This document shows, in pieces, positions 40,833-53,699 of a DNA stretch of 64,000 nucleotides (its first letter is position 1; each line of letters starts with the position of its first letter). The position numbers and the translations under genes were made by a program. Under the pieces are notes generated by a model. That model saw nothing but the letters and a program-made list of their open reading frames with translations. It did not search any database and was not told the DNA's origin. This DNA is from an uncultured archaeon (GTDB lineage Archaea; Thermoproteota; Nitrososphaeria_A; Caldarchaeales; Wolframiiraptoraceae): positions 1 to 64,000 of the forward strand of contig CALKCF010000007.1 in the NCBI GenBank assembly GCA_938083505.1, in the 5' to 3' direction.

Positions 40833-42608
40833 TTAATAACGTTTATCTGGTAAAAATTTGGTACTCGTCTCAGAAGTTGGTTTTTCTAGGACCCTGCTCC
40901 TCCGCCAGCTTAGCAGCACATATAAAAGACATGATAGCGATGCGACGAGTAGCGCAAGCGTCAGGATCTGAACGACTGACATGACGTCCACCAACGATCC
41001 ACCTATGCTGATCTTGTCACCTATTGTTATCCTAAGTTCCTCAGGACCCACCAATGGTATGCTGCGTTTCTGTAAGAGCTCTCCATCCATAAACACCGAA
41101 ACCATGAGCTTGCCTGGGTACGGTAAGGTCAATCTTATACCCTCTCCATCAACAATACCGTCAAACATATTTTCCCCTTCAAAGCTGACTTGAAGTCTTA
41201 GGCCGCCTATTGATGTGCCGAGCGAATCTACAACAGAAACGGTCACAGGATAGTTAATGGACTTCAGCCTTATGTTAATGTCCCCTTCACCGAGATTCAT
41301 AACACCATAATGTACTGGCCTTCCCATGTAGTTGAGCGTAACCTCGTACAAGCCTGGAAGGATTTTCAGATCGGCGCGTCCATCGTTTTCCGTAGTCGCC
41401 CCATACTCAGTGCCCGAGATGGTATCTTTGGCCTTGAGTGTTACACCGGCAAGCGGTACGCCTTCGTAATCCGTTACCGTTAACACAGCCCTAGAAAGCC
41501 TCGCAACAAACGTCTCTTCGGTGAGTGCTGACGTCACTTTCGTAACGAGCTTGCCTATGTACGATTTGCCTCTGAACAGCATTAGGGTGTAATCGCCAAC
41601 GTTACTGGGTGGTGTTGAGAAGGGTGCATTGGCGAGCGTGATCGTACCATCTGCATCGGTTTTCAAGGTCGTAAAGTTAGTAATAAGCCCATTACTTATC
41701 ATCACGCTTATTCCCTTAATCGGCTTTCCATCCTCATCAACGACCTTGAGCTTCAACGTGCCTAGGCTCGCGACTATGTCCAGAGCCACATCATGCATAA
41801 CATTCCTATTTTCTCTGTAAATGGTTATCGGCGTCGTGATAATAGTTTTTGTGACCTCTATTGTATAGTATTGTGTCGGTGCAAGCTCTGACGATGGAAT
41901 GTTCCGGAACGATACTGTTCCATCGGGTCCCGTGAGGCTCTTGCTAAAGTCTTCGGATCTTATCGTTACGGTTACTTGCGGGACTTTTTTACCTTCCATA
42001 TTCGTCACTGTGACGTTCAGATTCACGATCCTCGCAGATAGATTAATCAACGTTTTCTCTGGCACGGAGAACTGCGAGCTGACAACGATTATGCCATCCA
42101 CGAGAGCCTCAGCCGTATAGTCTCCTATGCCTACAACCGAAGAGTATGGAACGTCGGTAAAAGATACGCTGCCAAATTCGCCAGTCTTTCCGCTTAGGTT
42201 GATGCGACCACCAGAATCCCTTATACGCACCGTTATGTCCTGAACAGGCCTCTCCTTCGTATCTAGAACGATTACATTAATGGATGATATTTTGAGGACG
42301 AGCTCCACGTACGATTCTTTTGGAAACTCTACAACTTTTTGTGTCACGACAAAATCCCTGATTGCCGCCTCAACAGTATAGGTACCGCCTGGTAGATTCT
42401 TGAACACCGCATGACCTGTGCTGTTCGTTACGAAGATACGACTGAACCCTTCTTTGATAACTCTGACCTCGACATTACCCCTCGGCCTACCATCAGCATC
42501 GACCACGTGGACGTAGAGGTCCTGTTGCGCATGGATTACCGGCAGTAAGTAAGCAACGATTAGCGCTAAGGTAACGAGCAAAACCAACCTTTTTAAAGCC
42601 CCGTTCAT
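40833..42608 (-). CDS. Secreted, membrane-anchored protein with six tandem carboxypeptidase-regulatory/Ig-like repeats
   Basis: N-terminal signal peptide; repeats starting VHVVDADGRP, VIVLDTKERP, VTVTNMEGKK, LKVVDEDGKP, LTVTDYEGVP, VSVVDSLGTS; C-terminal TM helix and basic tail. Confidence 0.8.
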   Translation of the reverse strand: MNGALKRLVLLVTLALIVAYLLPVIHAQQDLYVHVVDADGRPRGNVEVRVIKEGFSRIFVTNSTGHAVFKNLPGGTYTVEAAIRDFVVTQKVVEFPKESYVELVLKISSINVIVLDTKERPVQDITVRIRDSGGRINLSGKTGEFGSVSFTDVPYSSVVGIGDYTAEALVDGIIVVSSQFSVPEKTLINLSARIVNLNVTVTNMEGKKVPQVTVTIRSEDFSKSLTGPDGTVSFRNIPSSELAPTQYYTIEVTKTIITTPITIYRENRNVMHDVALDIVASLGTLKLKVVDEDGKPIKGISVMISNGLITNFTTLKTDADGTITLANAPFSTPPSNVGDYTLMLFRGKSYIGKLVTKVTSALTEETFVARLSRAVLTVTDYEGVPLAGVTLKAKDTISGTEYGATTENDGRADLKILPGLYEVTLNYMGRPVHYGVMNLGEGDINIRLKSINYPVTVSVVDSLGTSIGGLRLQVSFEGENMFDGIVDGEGIRLTLPYPGKLMVSVFMDGELLQKRSIPLVGPEELRITIGDKISIGGSLVDVMSVVQILTLALLVASLSCLLYVLLSWRRSRVLEKPTSETSTKFLPDKRY

Positions 42609-46868: not shown

Positions 46869-47891
46869 CGTACGCTTTCCTTTTAGCAGAATTTCGATGA
46901 ACCTTTTTGTTACGTCTTCTGCGGTCGCTCTACCGCCTAAATCAGGTGTCAGGCTCTTCGGGTCCTGCAGTAAGCAGAGCACAGTGTCCTCCAGGTCTCT
47001 TGCCGCTTTTAGCATGACCGTGTTGTTCTTTTTCTTGCCAAGCCACTCGAGCATCATCTTTGACGCCATAATTTGAGCTATAGGGTTTGCGTATAGTGGG
47101 TTGATGTCCGGCGCCGTTCCGTGAACCGGCTCGAACAGGCCGAACTCGTCTCCTATATTGGCCGAGTAGGCTAGGCCCAAGCTACCAACTATGCCCGCAG
47201 CCTCGTCGCTCAGTATATCGCCGAACATATTCGTCGTGAGTATGACATCGAACTTCTGTGGATTACTCACGAGCTGGTACGCCGCATTATCGACGAGCAC
47301 CTCCTCTATAGTTACGTAGGGATAAGATTTAGCGACCTCGAACGTTGCCCTTCTTAAAAGCTCAAAACTTTTCAGCACGTTTACCTTGTGGACGACCGTC
47401 ACCCTTTTCTTCCTGGCTTCTGCTATCTGAAACGCAACATTAGCTATCCTCAAGCACGCCTTCTTAGTAAGCACCATAAGGGCAACCGCATACTCCTCGC
47501 CGACGTCCTCAAGGCCTTTATACAAGTCTTCTGTGTTCTCCCTGACGATCACTAAATCCACATCACTCCACTTGGAGCTCACTCCAGGAAACGTCCTGAA
47601 GGGTCTTATATTGGCATAAAGGTCCAGCTTCTGCCTTAGGAAGACTATTACGTCCTTCGCCGACTCGCCGACAGGCCCCTTTAAGCATGCGTCTGAAGAC
47701 CTTATCTTGTCGAACGAGTCCTTCGGTAGCGGCTCGCCGAAATCCTTCTTTGCAGAATCGCCGGCTGGTGCCTCCACGAAGCTCAAATTGAAACCATAAG
47801 CCTCAGAAATGACCTCCAATACTTTTTTTGCAGACCTGACGACGACAGGGCCTATGCCGTCGCCCGGTATTACGCTTATGAGGTTTGCCAT
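46863..47891 (-). CDS. leuB: 3-isopropylmalate dehydrogenase (isocitrate/IPM DH family)
   Basis: [37 protein letters not shown]; divergent from leuA. Confidence 0.9.
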
Positions 47892-47982
47892 ATTCTAGCC
47901 CACTTTTCTGTGAATATTTAAGCGTTGAAATCTGGCATCATGGGACCATGATCGCAGCATCTGTACTTTTCCGGCAAACTGT

Positions 47983-48032
47983 GAATTAGTTCAGTATTCG
48001 CGGAAAAATTTTCCAGCATGCTGAACTAATTC
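47983..48032. repeat. 50-bp imperfect palindrome in the leuB/leuA divergent promoter region
   Basis: GAATTAGTTCAG...CTGAACTAATTC 12-bp arms with inner GGAAAA-A-TTTTCC. Confidence 0.85.
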
Positions 48033-48035
48033 TCG

Positions 48036-48050
48036 AGAAACGCTTATATA
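48036..48050 (+). promoter_or_regulatory. BRE/TATA promoter for leuA
   Basis: GAGAAACGCTTATATA about 155 nt upstream of the leuA ATG. Confidence 0.6.
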
Positions 48051-48112
48051 TCGTTTGCCAACAAAGATGTGTAAGTTCGATAGGTGAGCAAAGTGAACCA
48101 ACTCGAATAAAT

Positions 48113-48198
48113 TTGGCAAAACTTTTCGAGCTAACATCTAACAAAACCTTTCAAAAATCCTGTTCTGTCGATGTTGTTGCACTTCTTCTCTGAGGTGC
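48113..48198 (+). promoter_or_regulatory. Candidate leuA leader: Leu/Val-rich uORF plus SD-sequestering hairpin
   Basis: uORF 48113-48193 ends VDVVALLL*; GCACTTC (48179-85) pairs with GAGGTGC (48192-98). Confidence 0.45.
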
Positions 48199-48204
48199 TG
48201 TCCA

Positions 48205-49731
48205 ATGGCTTGGAGGAAAATACTATCTGAGGGGTATAACATTCCCGAGAGAGTTAGTATATTCGACACGACCCTAAGAGATGGTGAGCAGACGCCTGGC
48301 GTCGCCCTGACGCCGGAGGATAAGGTCGAGATAGCTATACAGCTCGACAAGCTCGGCGTCGACATCATAGAAGCAGGCTTTCCGATAACCTCGAAGGGTG
48401 AACAGAAGGCCGTATCGGACATATGTAAGCTCGGCCTCTCGGCCAAAATATGCGCACTTGCAAGGTGCGAGAAGAACGACATAGATGCGGCGGTCGATGC
48501 TGGCGTCGATTGGGTCCACGTGTTCCTGGCAACCTCCGACATACACCTAAAGCACAAGCTTAGGATGACAAGGGAGCAAGCCCTCACGAAGATAGCAGAA
48601 GCTGTTGAGTATGCTAAATCAAGAGGGGTGATTGTTCATTACTCGGCCGAAGATGCGACAAGGACAGAACATGACTTTCTGATGAAAGCGTTAAAAGTAG
48701 CAGTCGATGCTGGAGCGGACAGTGTAGACATACCAGACACCGTTGGCTTTGGGATACCCGCGGCAATTCGTAGAATAGTGTCCTCTGCGAAGTTTGTTAC
48801 AGGAAAGCCAGTAGCAGTTCACTGTCATGACGACATGGGGTTGGCAGTAGCAAACTCGCTTTCAGCCGTCGAAGCAGGTGCGGAGATAATCCATGCGACG
48901 ATTAACGGAATAGGTGAGAGGGCTGGCAATGCAAGCTTAGAGGAGATAGTCGTAGCACTAAACATGCTTTACGGTGTGAAGACTAACATAAACCTACAAG
49001 AGATATACAAGACGTCTAGGCTTGTTGCAAAGCTTACTGGTGTTTGGATTCCTAAGAACAAGGCAATAGTCGGCGAGAACGCTTTTGCGCACGAGAGCGG
49101 TATACACGTGCACGGTATACTCGGCTCTCCTGAAACTTACGAACCAATAGCACCAGAACTTGTCGGAAGGAGAAGGAAGATAGTTGCCGGAAAGCACTCA
49201 GGCATACACAGCATAGATTTCCTGCTTAAAGAGCGCGGTCTTGAGATGGACAAGGTGAAGGCTAGAGAAGTTCTGGAAAGGGTCAAAGCCCTCGGGGATA
49301 TGGGCATGAGGGTTTCGGACGCCAAACTTAAGGAGATAGCTGAAGAAATTGTAGGCGAGTCAAGAGATTCTCGGACAATATTCCTGAAGGAGTTCAGCGT
49401 CGTATCGAATACGAATTGTGCGACGGCGCGCATATCTTTGAAAATAGGCGACGAAGTCATCACGGCTGAGTCTTTAGACCACAGCCCGGTTGCCGCATCC
49501 CTCTCAGCCCTTCTGAACGCTGTATCGAGAAAGATGAACATCAAGTTGATTGACTTTAGAATCGATGCAACATCTTACTCACCAGATTTGAAATGTGAGG
49601 CAGAAGTAGTTTTGAGTGTCAACAACTCACAGGAGTATGTTGGCGAGGCGGTCGGGCACGACCCGGCTTTTGTCACAGTAAACGCCATAATAACGGGCAT
49701 CGAGAAGGCTGTGCAGTCCTCTCGGTCATAG
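48205..49731 (+). CDS. leuA: 2-isopropylmalate synthase / citramalate synthase family
   Basis: [46 protein letters not shown]; C-terminal allosteric domain. Confidence 0.92.
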
Positions 49732-49755
49732 GTGGAGTAACATGAAAGTTATCAC

Positions 49756-49770
49756 GAAACGTTTTTATAA
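49756..49770 (+). promoter_or_regulatory. BRE/TATA promoter for ilvBNC
   Basis: GAAACGTTTTTATAA about 155 nt upstream of the ilvB ATG. Confidence 0.6.
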
Positions 49771-49799
49771 TGCGGAAGTTTTTCCCTTCACTTTGAGAT

Positions 49800-49927
49800 G
49801 TGAGGGTGATAATAATGCGCCAAATTATCTAGCAATTTTAGATAAGCCCTCACCTAGTATCTACCCTCTAGTATCGTGCTGTTCTCTTCTTTATCTGGAA
49901 ATCCATTTGTATGCGGTGAAGGCATAT
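49800..49927 (+). promoter_or_regulatory. Candidate ilvB attenuator leader: uORF MRQII* and alternative anti-SD pairings
   Basis: SD GAGGGTGAT followed by ATG CGC CAA ATT ATC TAG (49815-49832); 49842-54 is complementary to both 49800-07 and the ilvB RBS at 49915-27. Confidence 0.55.
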
Positions 49928-51671
49928 GGTAAGGGCAGCTGATGCTCTGGTCAAGGCCATGGAATCAAAGGGTGTGGAGGTCATCTTCGGTATACCCGGT
50001 GGTTCTAATTTAACGTTTTACGACGCGCTGTATGACAGTAACATAAGAACCATACTGATGAGGCATGAACAGCAGGCAGTGCATGCGGCAGAGGGTTATG
50101 CAAGGGTTAAGGGAAGGCCTGGGATAGCCTTAGCGACATCAGGTCCAGGTGCAACGAACCTAGTGACCGGAATAGTTAACGCGATGATGGACAGTCAGCC
50201 TGTTATAGCGATAACTGGTCAGGTAACGCGCGACGTGCTCGGAACAGATGCCTTCCAAGAAACGGACATAACAGGCATACTTTTGCCCGTCACAAAATAT
50301 ACTGTAACTGTCAAAGACCCATCTAAGCTTGCCCAGACGTTCATAGACGCATGGTACATCGCCACAACCGGCAGGCCTGGTCCTGTTCTCATCGACGTTC
50401 CAAGGGACGTGTTCCAAGCAGAGGTCGAGCCTCAGTGGAAGAACGAGCCAAGTCTAGCGAAGTATGTGCTAGACTCTCAGATAAGCCATGTCCATGAACC
50501 GGACCCGGAGCTCATAGTGAGGGCTGCCGAGATATTGACGAACGCCGAGAAACCCGTGATAATAGCTGGCGGAGGTGTGATAATAAGTAACGCTTCCGAG
50601 GAACTCGTCAAGCTGGCCGAGTACCTTATGGCTCCTGTCGTGGTTACAACACCTGGTCTGGGTTCCATACCTTCTGACCACCCGCTCATGCTGGGCGTCA
50701 TTGGTATGCATGGCAGAATTGAGGCAAACCTTGCCGTGATAGAGTCGGACACGATTCTGGCAGTCGGTATAAGGTTCTCCGATAGGTCTGTTGGAAGGTT
50801 TGATGAGCTTCAAAGAGATAGAAAGATAATCCACATAGATATAGATGCTAGCGAGATCAGCAAGAATGTTACACCAACCGTAGGCATAGTCGGCGATGCC
50901 AAGAGGACTTTGGCCGAAATTTATGCCTGCGTAACTTCAAGGATTGCAAGAAAAGACGCGAGACCATTCGTTCAAAGGCTCAAAGCGATAGGTGAGAGGT
51001 TTGATGAGTTCATGAACAACCATGGCGAACTGAGTAGGATAACTCCTTGGCGTGCGCTTAAGGTGATAAGAGAGGAGTTACCACGGAATGCAATAGTAGC
51101 GACGGGTGTCGGGCAACACCAGATGTGGGTCCAGCTTTACTTCAAGGTTTTCGAGCCAAGAACGCTTCTGACGAGTTGCGGCCTCGGAACTATGGGCTTC
51201 GGCCTACCTGCTGCCATCGGCGCGAAAATTGCAGCACCAGACAGGGCCGTAGCCTGCATCGATGGCGACGGTAGTTTCATCATGACGTGCCAGAGCTTGA
51301 TACCGATAGCCCAGTACGACATACCCATTATATGCATAATATTCAACAATAGGGTCCTAGGTATGATAAGGCAGTGGCAGGACTTCTTCTACCAAAAAAG
51401 GTACAAGGATGAGAGTCTCAATATATATCTAAAGAAATACGTCAGTAAAAGCGTTGATTATGTGAAGCTCGCAGAATCCATGGGTGTAGAGGGAGCTTTA
51501 GCAGAGTCGCTGGACGATTTAAGGATGTTAATTAGGAGGGCTGTAAGAGCAGGACAAGCGCTGGTCATAGACTTGCCGATAGACAAGGATGAGAGAGTAC
51601 TGCCAATGGTACCTCCTGGCAAGTGGCTCAGTCAGATGATAGTGCCCCAGGGGTTCGATATCTATGGTTAA
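49926..51671 (+). CDS. ilvB: Acetolactate synthase large subunit
   Basis: FGIPGG, RHEQ, TSGPGATN, AFQE, GVGQHQMW, GTMGFGLP, GDGSF..NN. Confidence 0.96.
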   Translation: MVRAADALVKAMESKGVEVIFGIPGGSNLTFYDALYDSNIRTILMRHEQQAVHAAEGYARVKGRPGIALATSGPGATNLVTGIVNAMMDSQPVIAITGQVTRDVLGTDAFQETDITGILLPVTKYTVTVKDPSKLAQTFIDAWYIATTGRPGPVLIDVPRDVFQAEVEPQWKNEPSLAKYVLDSQISHVHEPDPELIVRAAEILTNAEKPVIIAGGGVIISNASEELVKLAEYLMAPVVVTTPGLGSIPSDHPLMLGVIGMHGRIEANLAVIESDTILAVGIRFSDRSVGRFDELQRDRKIIHIDIDASEISKNVTPTVGIVGDAKRTLAEIYACVTSRIARKDARPFVQRLKAIGERFDEFMNNHGELSRITPWRALKVIREELPRNAIVATGVGQHQMWVQLYFKVFEPRTLLTSCGLGTMGFGLPAAIGAKIAAPDRAVACIDGDGSFIMTCQSLIPIAQYDIPIICIIFNNRVLGMIRQWQDFFYQKRYKDESLNIYLKKYVSKSVDYVKLAESMGVEGALAESLDDLRMLIRRAVRAGQALVIDLPIDKDERVLPMVPPGKWLSQMIVPQGFDIYG

Positions 51672-51933
51672 GCATACGTTCACCGCATTGATAGAGGACT
51701 CACTGGAGGCACTCCTCAAAGTATTCTTGACTACGAAGCAAGCTCAGGCGAAGCTTATCCGTGTGGAAGTTGACGATTCTGGTATAGATAACGTCAAGCT
51801 CTTAACTATGACGGTGTCGGTAAAACCTGAAAGGGCGGAGTGGCTCAAGAGAAAGTTATTTAACCTACCTGTGGTGCTGAAGGTAGATTACACAATATCG
51901 GATACGGGTCTGATGAAAAGTATGGATGCATAG
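51664..51933 (+). CDS. ilvN: ACT-domain acetolactate synthase small subunit
   Basis: 89 aa ACT-like pattern ending [11 protein letters not shown]; lies between ilvB and ilvC. Confidence 0.75.
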
Positions 51934-51947
51934 GTGGTGAGAGGCAG

Positions 51948-52928
51948 ATGGTAAAAATATACTACGAGAGCGACATAAGCCTCGAGCCGCTGCTTGGTAA
52001 GAAGGTAGCAGTCATAGGTTACGGGAGCCAAGGAAGGGCCCAAGCACTCAACATGAGGGACTCTGGAATAGACGTCATTGTTGGTGTTAGAGAAGGAGGA
52101 AAATCTTGGAGTGTGGTGAAAGAAGACGGTCTTGAGCCGCTTCCTGTAGAGAAGGCAGCGAAGGAAGGAGACGTAATCCACATGCTAATACCGGATGTGA
52201 TGCAGCCTGAGGTTTACAAGAAATTCATAGAACCAAACCTGAAAGCTGGAAAGGTCTTGGGCTTCTCGCATGGCTACAACATACACTTTAGGCAGATCAT
52301 ACCACCAAGTTACGTGGACGTCGTGCTCGTCGCTCCTAAGGCACCAGGTCCGAGAATGCGTGAGCTCTACCTTGAAGGCAAGGGCGTCCCGGCACTTTTC
52401 GCGGTGAAACAGGATTATTCTGGAAACGCAAGGATGATAGCTTTGGCTATGGCTAAGGCGTTAGGTTGCGCCAGGGCTGGCGTCCTTGAGACGACATTTA
52501 AGGAGGAGACGGAAACTGACCTACTGGGAGAGCAAGCGGTTTTGGTTGGCGGTCTCATTGAGCTCATAAAGAAGGGATATGAGGTACTGGTCGAGGCAGG
52601 ATACCAGCCAGAGCTTGCATACTTCGAAGTATGCAACGAGATGAAGCTAATAGTCGACTTAATATATAAAGGAGGCTTGGTCGGAATGCTGAAGGCAGTC
52701 TCCGATACCGCAAAGTTCGGCGGCCTACTTGTGGGCTCCCAGATAATCGACGAGCGTGTAAAGGAGAATATGAGGGAGGCTCTCAGGAGAATTCAAGACG
52801 GCTCCTTCGCGAGACTTTGGAGCGAAGACCCGAGGAGTAAGCTAATACTCGAGAAGAAGATGGAGGAAATAAGGAACCATCCAATAGAGAAAGTGGGCGA
52901 GGCCGTTAGGAAGTTGGCCCAAATATAG
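51948..52928 (+). CDS. ilvC: Ketol-acid reductoisomerase
   Basis: [35 protein letters not shown]. Confidence 0.97.
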
Positions 52929-53699
52929 TCAGCCTTGGAATAAGATCGGAAGGAGTTTGTAGTACACTGCCAGGCCGAACAGGAGCAGAGACATTAACAA
53001 GACCACATAGTCCTTAGCACTCATTTTAAGTTCTCTTAATGAAGTTCTTTTCTTCGCAGCACCAAAGCACTTAACTTCCATCGCCTCCGCCAACTCGTAT
53101 GCCCTTCTGAGAGCGTTCGCGAGGAGCGGTACGAGTATCGGTATAAGCTTCTTAGCTCTCTCTAAAGGCCCGCCCCTGTCCAGCTCGACGCCGCGTGCCC
53201 TCTGCGCATCCATGATGTCTTTGAGCTCTTGGGCTATTATCGGCGTAAACCTTATCGCCGATATGAAGGCGAATGTGTATGGGTAGGGGACACGCCAGCT
53301 TGTAAGCGTTAGCCCTATCTCTTCCGGTGTCGTGGTCAAGAAGAATATTGAGAACGATGAAAGGAACAGCACAAGCCTGTACGCTAGCGTTGCTGAATAG
53401 TAAAGCGTCTCTTGCAATGTCGCATGGGTATCAGTCGAGATGAAGAATATAGCATTTAAACCAAAGACAAGGGCAGCCAGGGGCATCGAGCCCCTTATCG
53501 TCTTAAGCCAGCGTCGCACTATCTTAGCAATGTAAGCCATAACCGCCTGTACTGTTATGAGAATCGTCAGCATCCATACCTCTGCATACATCACGACTAT
53601 GATGAGCATTATCGTGGAAACGAGAAGTTTCACCCTTGGATCGAGCTTGTGTATCGCTGTATCGCCAGCGTAGAACTTAAGCCCCTCTAGTATGCTCAA
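52929..53699 (-). CDS. ecfT: ECF transporter T component
   Basis: HKLDPRVKL, TTTPEE, IRFTP, AQRARG. Confidence 0.92.
   Translation of the reverse strand: MSILEGLKFYAGDTAIHKLDPRVKLLVSTIMLIIVVMYAEVWMLTILITVQAVMAYIAKIVRRWLKTIRGSMPLAALVFGLNAIFFISTDTHATLQETLYYSATLAYRLVLFLSSFSIFFLTTTPEEIGLTLTSWRVPYPYTFAFISAIRFTPIIAQELKDIMDAQRARGVELDRGGPLERAKKLIPILVPLLANALRRAYELAEAMEVKCFGAAKKRTSLRELKMSAKDYVVLLMSLLLFGLAVYYKLLPILFQG

Follow-up and report, generated by a model that had tools for sequence, protein, structure and literature searches.

We analysed a stretch of 64,000 nucleotides (nt) from an uncultured archaeon of the family Wolframiiraptoraceae in the order Caldarchaeales (contig CALKCF010000007.1 of assembly GCA_938083505.1, forward strand, positions 1 to 64,000; hereafter the window), concentrating on the leader of ilvB, the gene for the large subunit of acetolactate synthase, which carries a very short open reading frame (ORF) that is a candidate sensor of amino acid supply. 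The source genome comprises 1.15 Mb and is 98% complete, and the closest named homologues of its IlvB belong to metagenome-assembled genomes of the Nitrososphaerota/"Aigarchaeota", including Candidatus Terraquivivens tikiterensis. The locus shows the gene order leuB (minus strand), leuA, ilvB, a small ilvN-like gene and ilvC. The ilvB gene (49926..51671, plus strand) codes for a protein of 581 amino acids with the Pfam domains TPP_enzyme_N, _M and _C, its name being the one carried by its homologues. Its ATG at 49926 is preceded by a Shine-Dalgarno (SD) motif, GGTGA, at 49915-19 (ribosome site 49915..49928, plus strand), which is unchanged in 14 of the 15 leaders compared below. Sequence comparison across metagenome-assembled genomes is the evidence base for all that follows.

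The ilvB leader begins with a box resembling a B recognition element (BRE) joined to a TATA box (ACGAAACGTTTTTATAA, 49754..49770, plus strand), which was read in the sequence and is similar to the boxes ahead of leuA and ileS; from the TATA box a transcript start is predicted at about 49790-49796, which would give a leader of about 130 nt. Further downstream lies an SD region (49800..49810, plus strand; GAGGGTGAT at 49802-10, with GGTGA at 49805-09) that is situated 11 nt 5' of the CAA codon of a mini-ORF, ATG CGC CAA ATT ATC TAG (49815..49832, plus strand), encoding MRQII*, in which the CAA occupies 49821-23 and the two Ile codons 49824-29. Since the 16S rRNA ends in ..GGATCACCTCCT, both GGTGA and GAGG are genuine SD matches. 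A preliminary description of this DNA had already reported the promoter box, the SD and the MRQII* mini-ORF, and all three were recovered at the same positions.

For comparison, 15 distinct ilvB leaders were gathered from six species genomes of the genus, further assemblies, the second copies of tandem ilvB-ilvN pairs and a more distant contig (L115), whose IlvB is only 74% identical. The close relatives were obtained via exact-protein look-ups; a metagenome scan with the IlvB N-terminus was dominated by relatives of at most 61% identity and was of no use for the leader. The tandem ilvB-ilvN duplication occurs at loci L004, L002, L006 and L118 (genomes G001, G005 and G002, and one further assembly), where a separate promoter box and mini-ORF leader precede each of the ilvB copies, and the second-copy leaders form a distinct sequence type (MVRQIL*). 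The SD and mini-ORF are present in 15 of 15 leaders, that of L115 included, and the promoter box in 13 of 15, among them second tandem copies that lack the start of an upstream ORF discussed below. A search of other genera recovered no ilvB leader, ilvB there adjoining leuA or having a short promoter region.

The peptides encoded by these mini-ORFs vary: besides MRQII* in the window we observed MRRQIP*, MRRQVL*, MRHQVL*, MVRQIL*, MVHQIL*, MANQIPYV* and, with a GTG start, (GTG)RQIL* and (GTG)RQVL*. The start hexamer is likewise variable (ATGAGG, ATAATG, CTAGTG, ACGGTG, ATGGTG, ATGGTA), with an in-frame ATG or GTG kept in every leader; in the window the usual ATG is lost and a replacement ATG stands one codon downstream. 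The CAA is invariant and is followed by ATT, GTC or GTT (Ile or Val) and then by CTC, CTA, ATC or CCA (Leu, Ile or Pro), with synonymous changes at these putative sensing codons (GTC/GTT, CTC/CTA).

A sister element precedes leuA (48083..48110, plus strand), where the SD GGTGA is followed by GTG AAC CAA CTC GAA TAA (MNQLE*). The form GTG A(A/G)C CAA CTC GAx stop recurs in seven of seven genomes of the genus, and with MQNQLCLIH* in L115 the core x-Q-L is found in all eight. In other genera leuA heads a leuA-ilvB-ilvN-ilvC operon, and its leader, which begins with SD-N5-TTG CT(T/C), encodes such peptides as (M)LQI.. and (M)LGLL*. The divergent leuB-leuA region of the window also contains a large perfect inverted repeat (47983-48032; GAATTAGTTCAG ... 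GGAAAAATTTTCC ... CTGAACTAATTC), immediately 5' of the leuA BRE/TATA box; it is conserved in relatives and gives a weak palindromic Rfam match. The repeat is probably a transcription-factor operator, in which case leuA may be controlled at two levels.

A further element of this kind was found ahead of ileS (G000 contig C6, 115640-115760; locus L120:240-360), consisting of a TATA-like box, the SD GGTGAG and ATG TAC CGC CAA ATT TAA. Within the genus the leader reads ATG TAC CGC CAA ATT stop, with x-Q-I in seven of seven genomes, and 3' of the stop there is a hairpin that differs in sequence between species and yet retains its pairing. Four further genera of the family (isoleucyl-tRNA synthetase, IleRS, 62-67% identical) also have the x-Q-I core ahead of ileS, while family f3 has MARQIHIFI*, with three Ile codons, and family f4 MSHQIL*; the element is thus present in three families of the order Caldarchaeales. 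No CAA-ATT element was seen ahead of ileS in 11 genomes belonging to other classes of the phylum, and the regions upstream of valS and leuS contain no comparable mini-ORF. In the AT-rich f3 the ilvB matches at L025, L027 and L028 contain one or two in-frame TGA codons and the ileS matches at L139-L141 one in-frame TAG, which may reflect recoding, a frameshift or a match overrunning the true start.

What the ilvB, leuA and ileS leaders share is an SD, a start codon, a variable codon, CAA and a cognate codon, and beyond this core they are unalignable between genera. The SD-to-CAA spacing is 10-11 nt in all three. The base directly 5' of the CAA is C throughout, though the codon to which it belongs changes (CGC, CAC, AAC, AGC or TAC, for Arg, His, Asn, Ser or Tyr); CGC is a rare codon, accounting for 5% of Arg codons. 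The cognate codon stands at a fixed position (Ile or Val for ilvB, Leu for leuA, Ile for ileS) and numbers one or two, runs of such codons being confined to the f3 ileS leaders and to the end of the leuA -1 frame considered below. A genome-wide scan for the arrangement (SD, start, one or two codons, CAA, one to five codons, stop) gave 41 matches, and the intergenic ones with a downstream gene include ilvB, leuA and a gene for a 1069-amino-acid class-I synthetase, judged by its length, HIGH-type motif and Pfam family to be IleRS. Another match of the CAA type, VTQL* on contig C4, precedes an ORF judged by eye to be radical-SAM-like and was taken as chance. Neither a protein operator nor a chance ORF would predict that in three gene families the variable triplet tracks the amino acid with which the regulated gene is concerned, and we regard the three sets of leaders as one family in the order Caldarchaeales. 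The combination of an SD-led mini-ORF behind its own promoter with the sister elements of leuA and ileS makes an amino-acid-sensing system the most economical reading, and we estimate at about 60% the probability that the ilvB mini-ORF is a sensing leader ORF, i.e. a ribosome-read gauge of charged tRNA. The preliminary description had proposed a leader-peptide system reaching beyond ilvB: the leuA element, with its conserved Leu codon, upholds that proposal and ileS, with its Ile codon, enlarges it, whereas the hairpin mechanism attached to it did not hold up, as set out below.

The whole spacer ahead of ilvB falls, as had not been noticed earlier, within a single open frame of 66 codons (49742..49942, plus strand), which is -1 relative to the mini-ORF, has an SD of its own, begins at an ATG 11 nt downstream of the leuA stop and extends 14 nt into ilvB. 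No stop codon interrupts it in any of the ten leuA-adjacent ilvB leaders, whose other frames contain 3-7 stops. Two deletions, one of 21 and one of 24 nt, preserve this frame; the former (L119:2320-2500) removes the TATA box while the long ORF and the mini-ORF are retained, and L115 has an equivalent ORF of 60 codons with its own SD and ATG. In the second tandem ilvB copies the start of the long ORF is absent or the frame is interrupted. Gene callers annotate the frame, at 54-69 codons, as a hypothetical protein, which is probably misleading. Substitutions across 49742-49942 show no codon-position bias and no excess of synonymous change, and the 66-codon ORF has no Pfam match; the lack of a family match and of codon-position bias was taken to rule out a sequence-constrained protein, though not translation of the frame. 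It is the openness of the frame that is kept, and not the peptide.

One could nevertheless hold that the 66-codon ORF alone is the functional unit, either as a spacer ORF keeping ribosomes on the leuA-ilvB message or as a small protein, with the mini-ORF being incidental. The unconstrained peptide sits badly with this, as do the second tandem copies, which retain promoter box and mini-ORF next to a long ORF that is startless or interrupted, and the occurrence of the same mini-ORF core before ileS and leuA without any such started ORF. Set against these are the open frame in the ten leuA-adjacent leaders and in L115, its SD and ATG, its in-frame indels (one of them at the expense of the TATA box), a stop that overlaps the ilvB start and its recognition by gene callers. 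On balance we consider this explanation unlikely.

The openness of the -1 frame extends to the sister leaders. In 17 of 17 representative leaders it continues to within 20 nt of the main start, its stop falling at -16 to +26 nt, as against five of 17 in which the +1 frame is open equally far. Shuffling assigns the individual leaders probabilities of 0.12-0.61, with a product of about 6e-11 over lineages that are not fully independent. Ahead of ileS the frame is 25-32 codons long, and its stop lies 7-26 nt beyond the start of ileS, except in G008 (16 nt before the start) and in one f3 genome (2 nt before it); just upstream it is closed by a TGA within the SD, and in two genomes (G006, G040) it runs on into ileS as the ileS frame itself. 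Ahead of leuA it has 33-57 codons and ends inside the leuA SD; in the window the end reads GCA CTT CTT CTC TGA (ALLL*; 48179..48197, plus strand), with the stop inside the SD GAGGTG, and across the order the frame ends in Leu/Ile runs (ALLL*, LLLLL*, IILLL*, LLIL*, IIIIL*, ILLLW*). These Leu codons (CTTCTTCTC) also form a pyrimidine strand able to pair with the leuA SD. Start codons for the -1 frame were sought in the ileS and leuA leaders; they are absent in most and none is consistent, the AUU in the conserved ATTGCT of leuA leaders outside the genus being a possible non-canonical start. A genome-wide scan for an SD-led mini-ORF with a -1 frame open to the gene start gave 33 loose matches, of which those at ileS, leuA and ilvB alone are convincing; ten of the loose matches were read in sequence, and none was convincing, some being gene starts or ends.

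The preliminary description had envisaged a bacterial-style attenuator, in which a ribosome on the Ile codons selects between mutually exclusive pairings, so as to free or hide the ilvB ribosome site or to form a terminator at a pyrimidine tract. The pairings do exist in the window. The 7-bp hairpin TTATCTA/TAGATAA (49825..49845, plus strand; 49825-31 with 49839-45) is part of the minimum-energy fold, but it has a single G-C pair, which is weak for a thermophile, and is confined to the window; the relatives have another, G+C-rich hairpin (GGGCG/CGCCC) a few bases 3' of the mini-ORF stop, or none, and their individual folds differ. The core of what was termed segment B, CCCTCAC (49847..49853, plus strand), is a perfect complement of GTGAGGG (49800-06), and of the 13 positions of segment B as a whole 11 match the ilvB ribosome site as complements, but these pairings are not conserved, the relatives having at the CCCTCAC position CCCTCGC or CCTTCGCC as the 3' arm of a hairpin of their own. 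The alternative partner suggested for the SD region of this upstream ORF (uORF), ACCCTC (49863-68), is indeed complementary to its GAGGGT and belongs to a conserved block, TAGTATCTACCCTCTAGTATC (49856..49876, plus strand), in which a 7-nt direct repeat surrounds the anti-SD-like ACCCTC; the block is present in about nine of 15 leaders and has been lost in one clade, where ATGTAATCTG stands in its place. The relatives too can pair the uORF SD, through CCCTCGC or ACCCTC. The repeat unit, (C/T)AG(C/T)ATC, lies on both sides of TACCCTC (49856-49876), and its two copies tend to covary between species (both read TAGTATC in the window, and both CAGTATC in L005).

Folding offers such a switch little help. 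The window leader reaches -33.4 kcal/mol, compared with -31.9 +/- 3.8 kcal/mol for dinucleotide shuffles (z -0.39), and so has no excess stability, while RNAalifold on 14 ilvB leaders gave -4.7 kcal/mol and no common structure beyond one 4-bp stem, which pairs the SD with the codon before CAA (GGYG:CRCC; U.G in 9, U-A in 3, C-G in 1). We also modelled, at equilibrium, whether a ribosome footprint on the uORF alters the mean unpaired probability of the ilvB ribosome site. The footprint left this probability unchanged in 12 of the 14 leaders at 37 C and in 13 of 14 at 65 C, the values for the window being 0.43 versus 0.38. Archaeal intrinsic termination uses oligo-T; the pyrimidine tract (49879..49896, plus strand) that had been put forward as a terminator is real, but it is poorly conserved, has no T run of more than 3 in the window and none longer than 3-4 overall, and no terminator was recognized at the leader end. 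With AU-rich helices of 6-7 bp that are weak at hot-spring temperatures, and an ilvB site predicted to be indifferent to uORF occupancy, an attenuator of the bacterial type is quite unlikely. Among the relatives the uORF and its Ile/Val codons are conserved, but the pairings are not and no fold is shared, so that the ribosome-controlled choice between exclusive structures, resting on pairings specific to the window, is not supported.

The conserved core (SD-like GTGAGGGTGAT ... GCGCCAA) might instead serve as an operator for a DNA- or RNA-binding regulator, for example of the Lrp type, with its start, stop and codon identities being coincidental. Its third codon positions (CGC CAA) are conserved as nucleotides, unlike in protein coding, it lies just 3' of the predicted transcript start, and the large palindrome upstream of the leuA TATA box was taken to show that protein operators occur in the region. 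Such an operator cannot, however, account for a post-CAA triplet that tracks the pathway (Leu for leuA, Ile for ileS, Ile/Val for ilvB), for the constant start and early stop or for the open -1 frame, and we regard it as improbable. A T-box-like RNA, with ATT, GTC or CTC serving as the specifier for direct recognition of uncharged tRNA, is highly improbable. It would fit the triplet tracking the amino acid of the regulated gene and, as in T-boxes, the presence of an aminoacyl-tRNA synthetase gene among the targets, but not an Rfam scan of 47000-53000 that at E values up to 10 gave noise and no leader, T-box or riboswitch family, nor the lack of conserved structure, the unalignability of the leaders between genera or the conservation of an SD, start and stop for which a T-box has no need.

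On the favoured reading of the mini-ORF as an amino-acid-sensing leader, scarcity of Ile or Val would leave the ribosome waiting with CAA in its P site and the Ile/Val codon in its A site, and ilvB expression would rise, as the comparison suggests. How the wait might be translated into expression is more tentative. The waiting ribosome, still tethered to the SD 10-11 nt upstream, could slip by -1 instead of ending at the nearby stop; it would then translate the whole leader and pass by termination-reinitiation to the start of ilvB, leuA or ileS, while on transcripts from the leuA promoter the same frame would be entered at ATG 49742, coupling leuA to ilvB. To a starvation-triggered -1 shift of this kind, into an open frame coupled to initiation of the main gene, we would give clearly less than even odds. 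It is favoured by a -1 frame that mostly has no other entry, by a zero frame that ends right after the sensing codon, by the invariant C before CAA, and by an SD placed 10-11 nt before CAA, inside the 9-14 nt at which an upstream SD is reported to stimulate -1 shifting, one SD being able to serve both initiation and shifting (PMC5009743). With C before CAA, a tRNA-Gln that has slipped by -1 might regain two of its three base pairs, and the conserved ATTG of the other leuA leaders would let initiator tRNA sit on ATT or TTG. Hairpins lie 3' of the stop in the ileS leaders, where they differ in sequence, and in most ilvB leaders (GGGCG/CGCCC), with none suitably placed in the window, L113 and L115.

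Several observations weigh against sensing or against the proposed shift. The case is comparative, with a predicted transcript start, and the ilvB leader is limited to one genus, ilvB elsewhere lying directly behind leuA. Its sensing codons amount to one Ile/Val codon plus one Leu/Ile/Pro codon, without a run, and the conservation of CGCC could reflect the 4-bp pairing with the SD (GGYG:CRCC) instead. In G008 the ileS core, CAA ATT ATT TAG, lacks an in-frame start. In the leuA-adjacent ilvB leaders the -1 frame has its own ATG, so that for ilvB taken alone no frameshift is needed, and that it is open in the second tandem copies could be left over from gene conversion. As to the shift site itself, none of C CAA ATT, C CAA GTC and C CAA CTC is a canonical slippery heptamer (X XXY YYZ), tRNA-Gln would be mismatched at the middle position after slipping by -1, and the window has no hairpin placed to stimulate frameshifting. 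The output of an amino-acid-sensing leader may also be of another sort: a ribosome paused near the 5' end may shield the message from 5'-to-3' decay, or the pause may affect factor-dependent termination.

Bacterial leader peptides offer the nearest functional parallels. The enterobacterial transcription attenuators ivbL-ilvBN, ilvL-ilvGMEDA, leuL and pheM-pheST likewise employ a short SD-led ORF at the 5' end whose codons match the downstream product, and the archaeal leaders resemble them in serving ilvB, leuA and an aminoacyl-tRNA synthetase gene. They differ in their length of 5-8 codons, in having one or two sensing codons, which immediately precede the stop, in showing neither conserved alternative hairpins nor a terminator hairpin with a U run, and in their archaeal host. 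In ermC, cat-86 and cmlA antibiotics are sensed through short leader ORFs, on which a paused ribosome opens a hairpin over the downstream ribosome site, and a ribosome paused near the 5' end can also stabilise the message; the very short 5' leader ORF is common to this translational attenuation and the leaders described here, whereas opening of the ribosome site is not predicted for the latter. The T-box riboswitches of Firmicutes place branched-chain synthesis genes and ileS under an element with a cognate triplet, and so follow the same regulon logic, but the archaeal leaders have no structure or Rfam match of that kind, and it is translation signals that are conserved in them.

Two other short ORFs belong beside these comparisons. 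On contig C1 of the same genome (G000; about 42465-42540, plus strand) there is an ORF of 22 codons that uses a GTG start behind GGCGGTGA and contains Phe-Phe, Tyr, Trp-Tyr and Tyr codons; an ORF of 415 amino acids follows after about 50 nt. The short ORF looks like a classical leader peptide, would need no change of frame and was counted in favour of amino acid sensing. On the minus strand of the window (4465-4436) a nine-codon uORF with one Trp codon overlaps a candidate trpE start (ATG 4443) by 8 nt, and a TATA-like ATTATTAAATA lies about 40 nt upstream of it.

No attenuation or antitermination is known in archaea according to Blombach et al. 2021 (PMC8448881), and our full-text literature search found no archaeal leader-peptide system. 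For the leuA-Halobacteria motif, searched by name, no paper was found. In bacteria, a conserved uORF upstream of ilvB in the Corynebacterium ilvBNC operon has been proposed to control branched-chain synthesis (PMC10272879, PMC11857589). That system is bacterial and its model involves a three-hairpin terminator, with no overlapping start-less frame described in the abstracts.

For the putative shift, the relevant precedents are programmed frameshift sites such as dnaX (-1, with an upstream SD and a stem-loop) and prfB (+1, with a slow A site) (PMC5009743). Features in common with them are a start-less overlapping frame, an SD 10-11 nt upstream, a codon that would be slow in the A site and a zero-frame stop close by. 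Hairpins of differing sequence lie shortly downstream in the relatives and the ileS leaders, and in two genomes the shifted frame is that of ileS. Unlike dnaX they have no X XXY YYZ heptamer, the ligand would be aminoacyl-tRNA, and the shifted product is an unconstrained peptide for which a coupling role is proposed. In all, up to three of the four features of a dnaX-type frameshift site are present, the downstream hairpin varying between leaders. Of a starvation-specific use of shifting at hungry codons "no examples are known" (PMC5009743).

Control of genes after polymerase recruitment is barely documented in archaea. In the interpretation favoured here ilvB, leuA and ileS would form one regulon with related leader ORFs of 5-8 codons, across an order of uncultured hot-spring archaea, and the gauging of amino acids by the ribosome in archaea becomes directly testable through short, defined sequences. 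Classical attenuation does not explain why a start-less -1 frame should in every case extend to the main start. If a starvation-induced -1 shift is indeed what this frame serves, it would fill a gap named by a review of frameshifting (PMC5009743) and would represent both the first natural case of regulation by hungry-codon frameshifting and an archaeal amino acid sensor that relies on translation.

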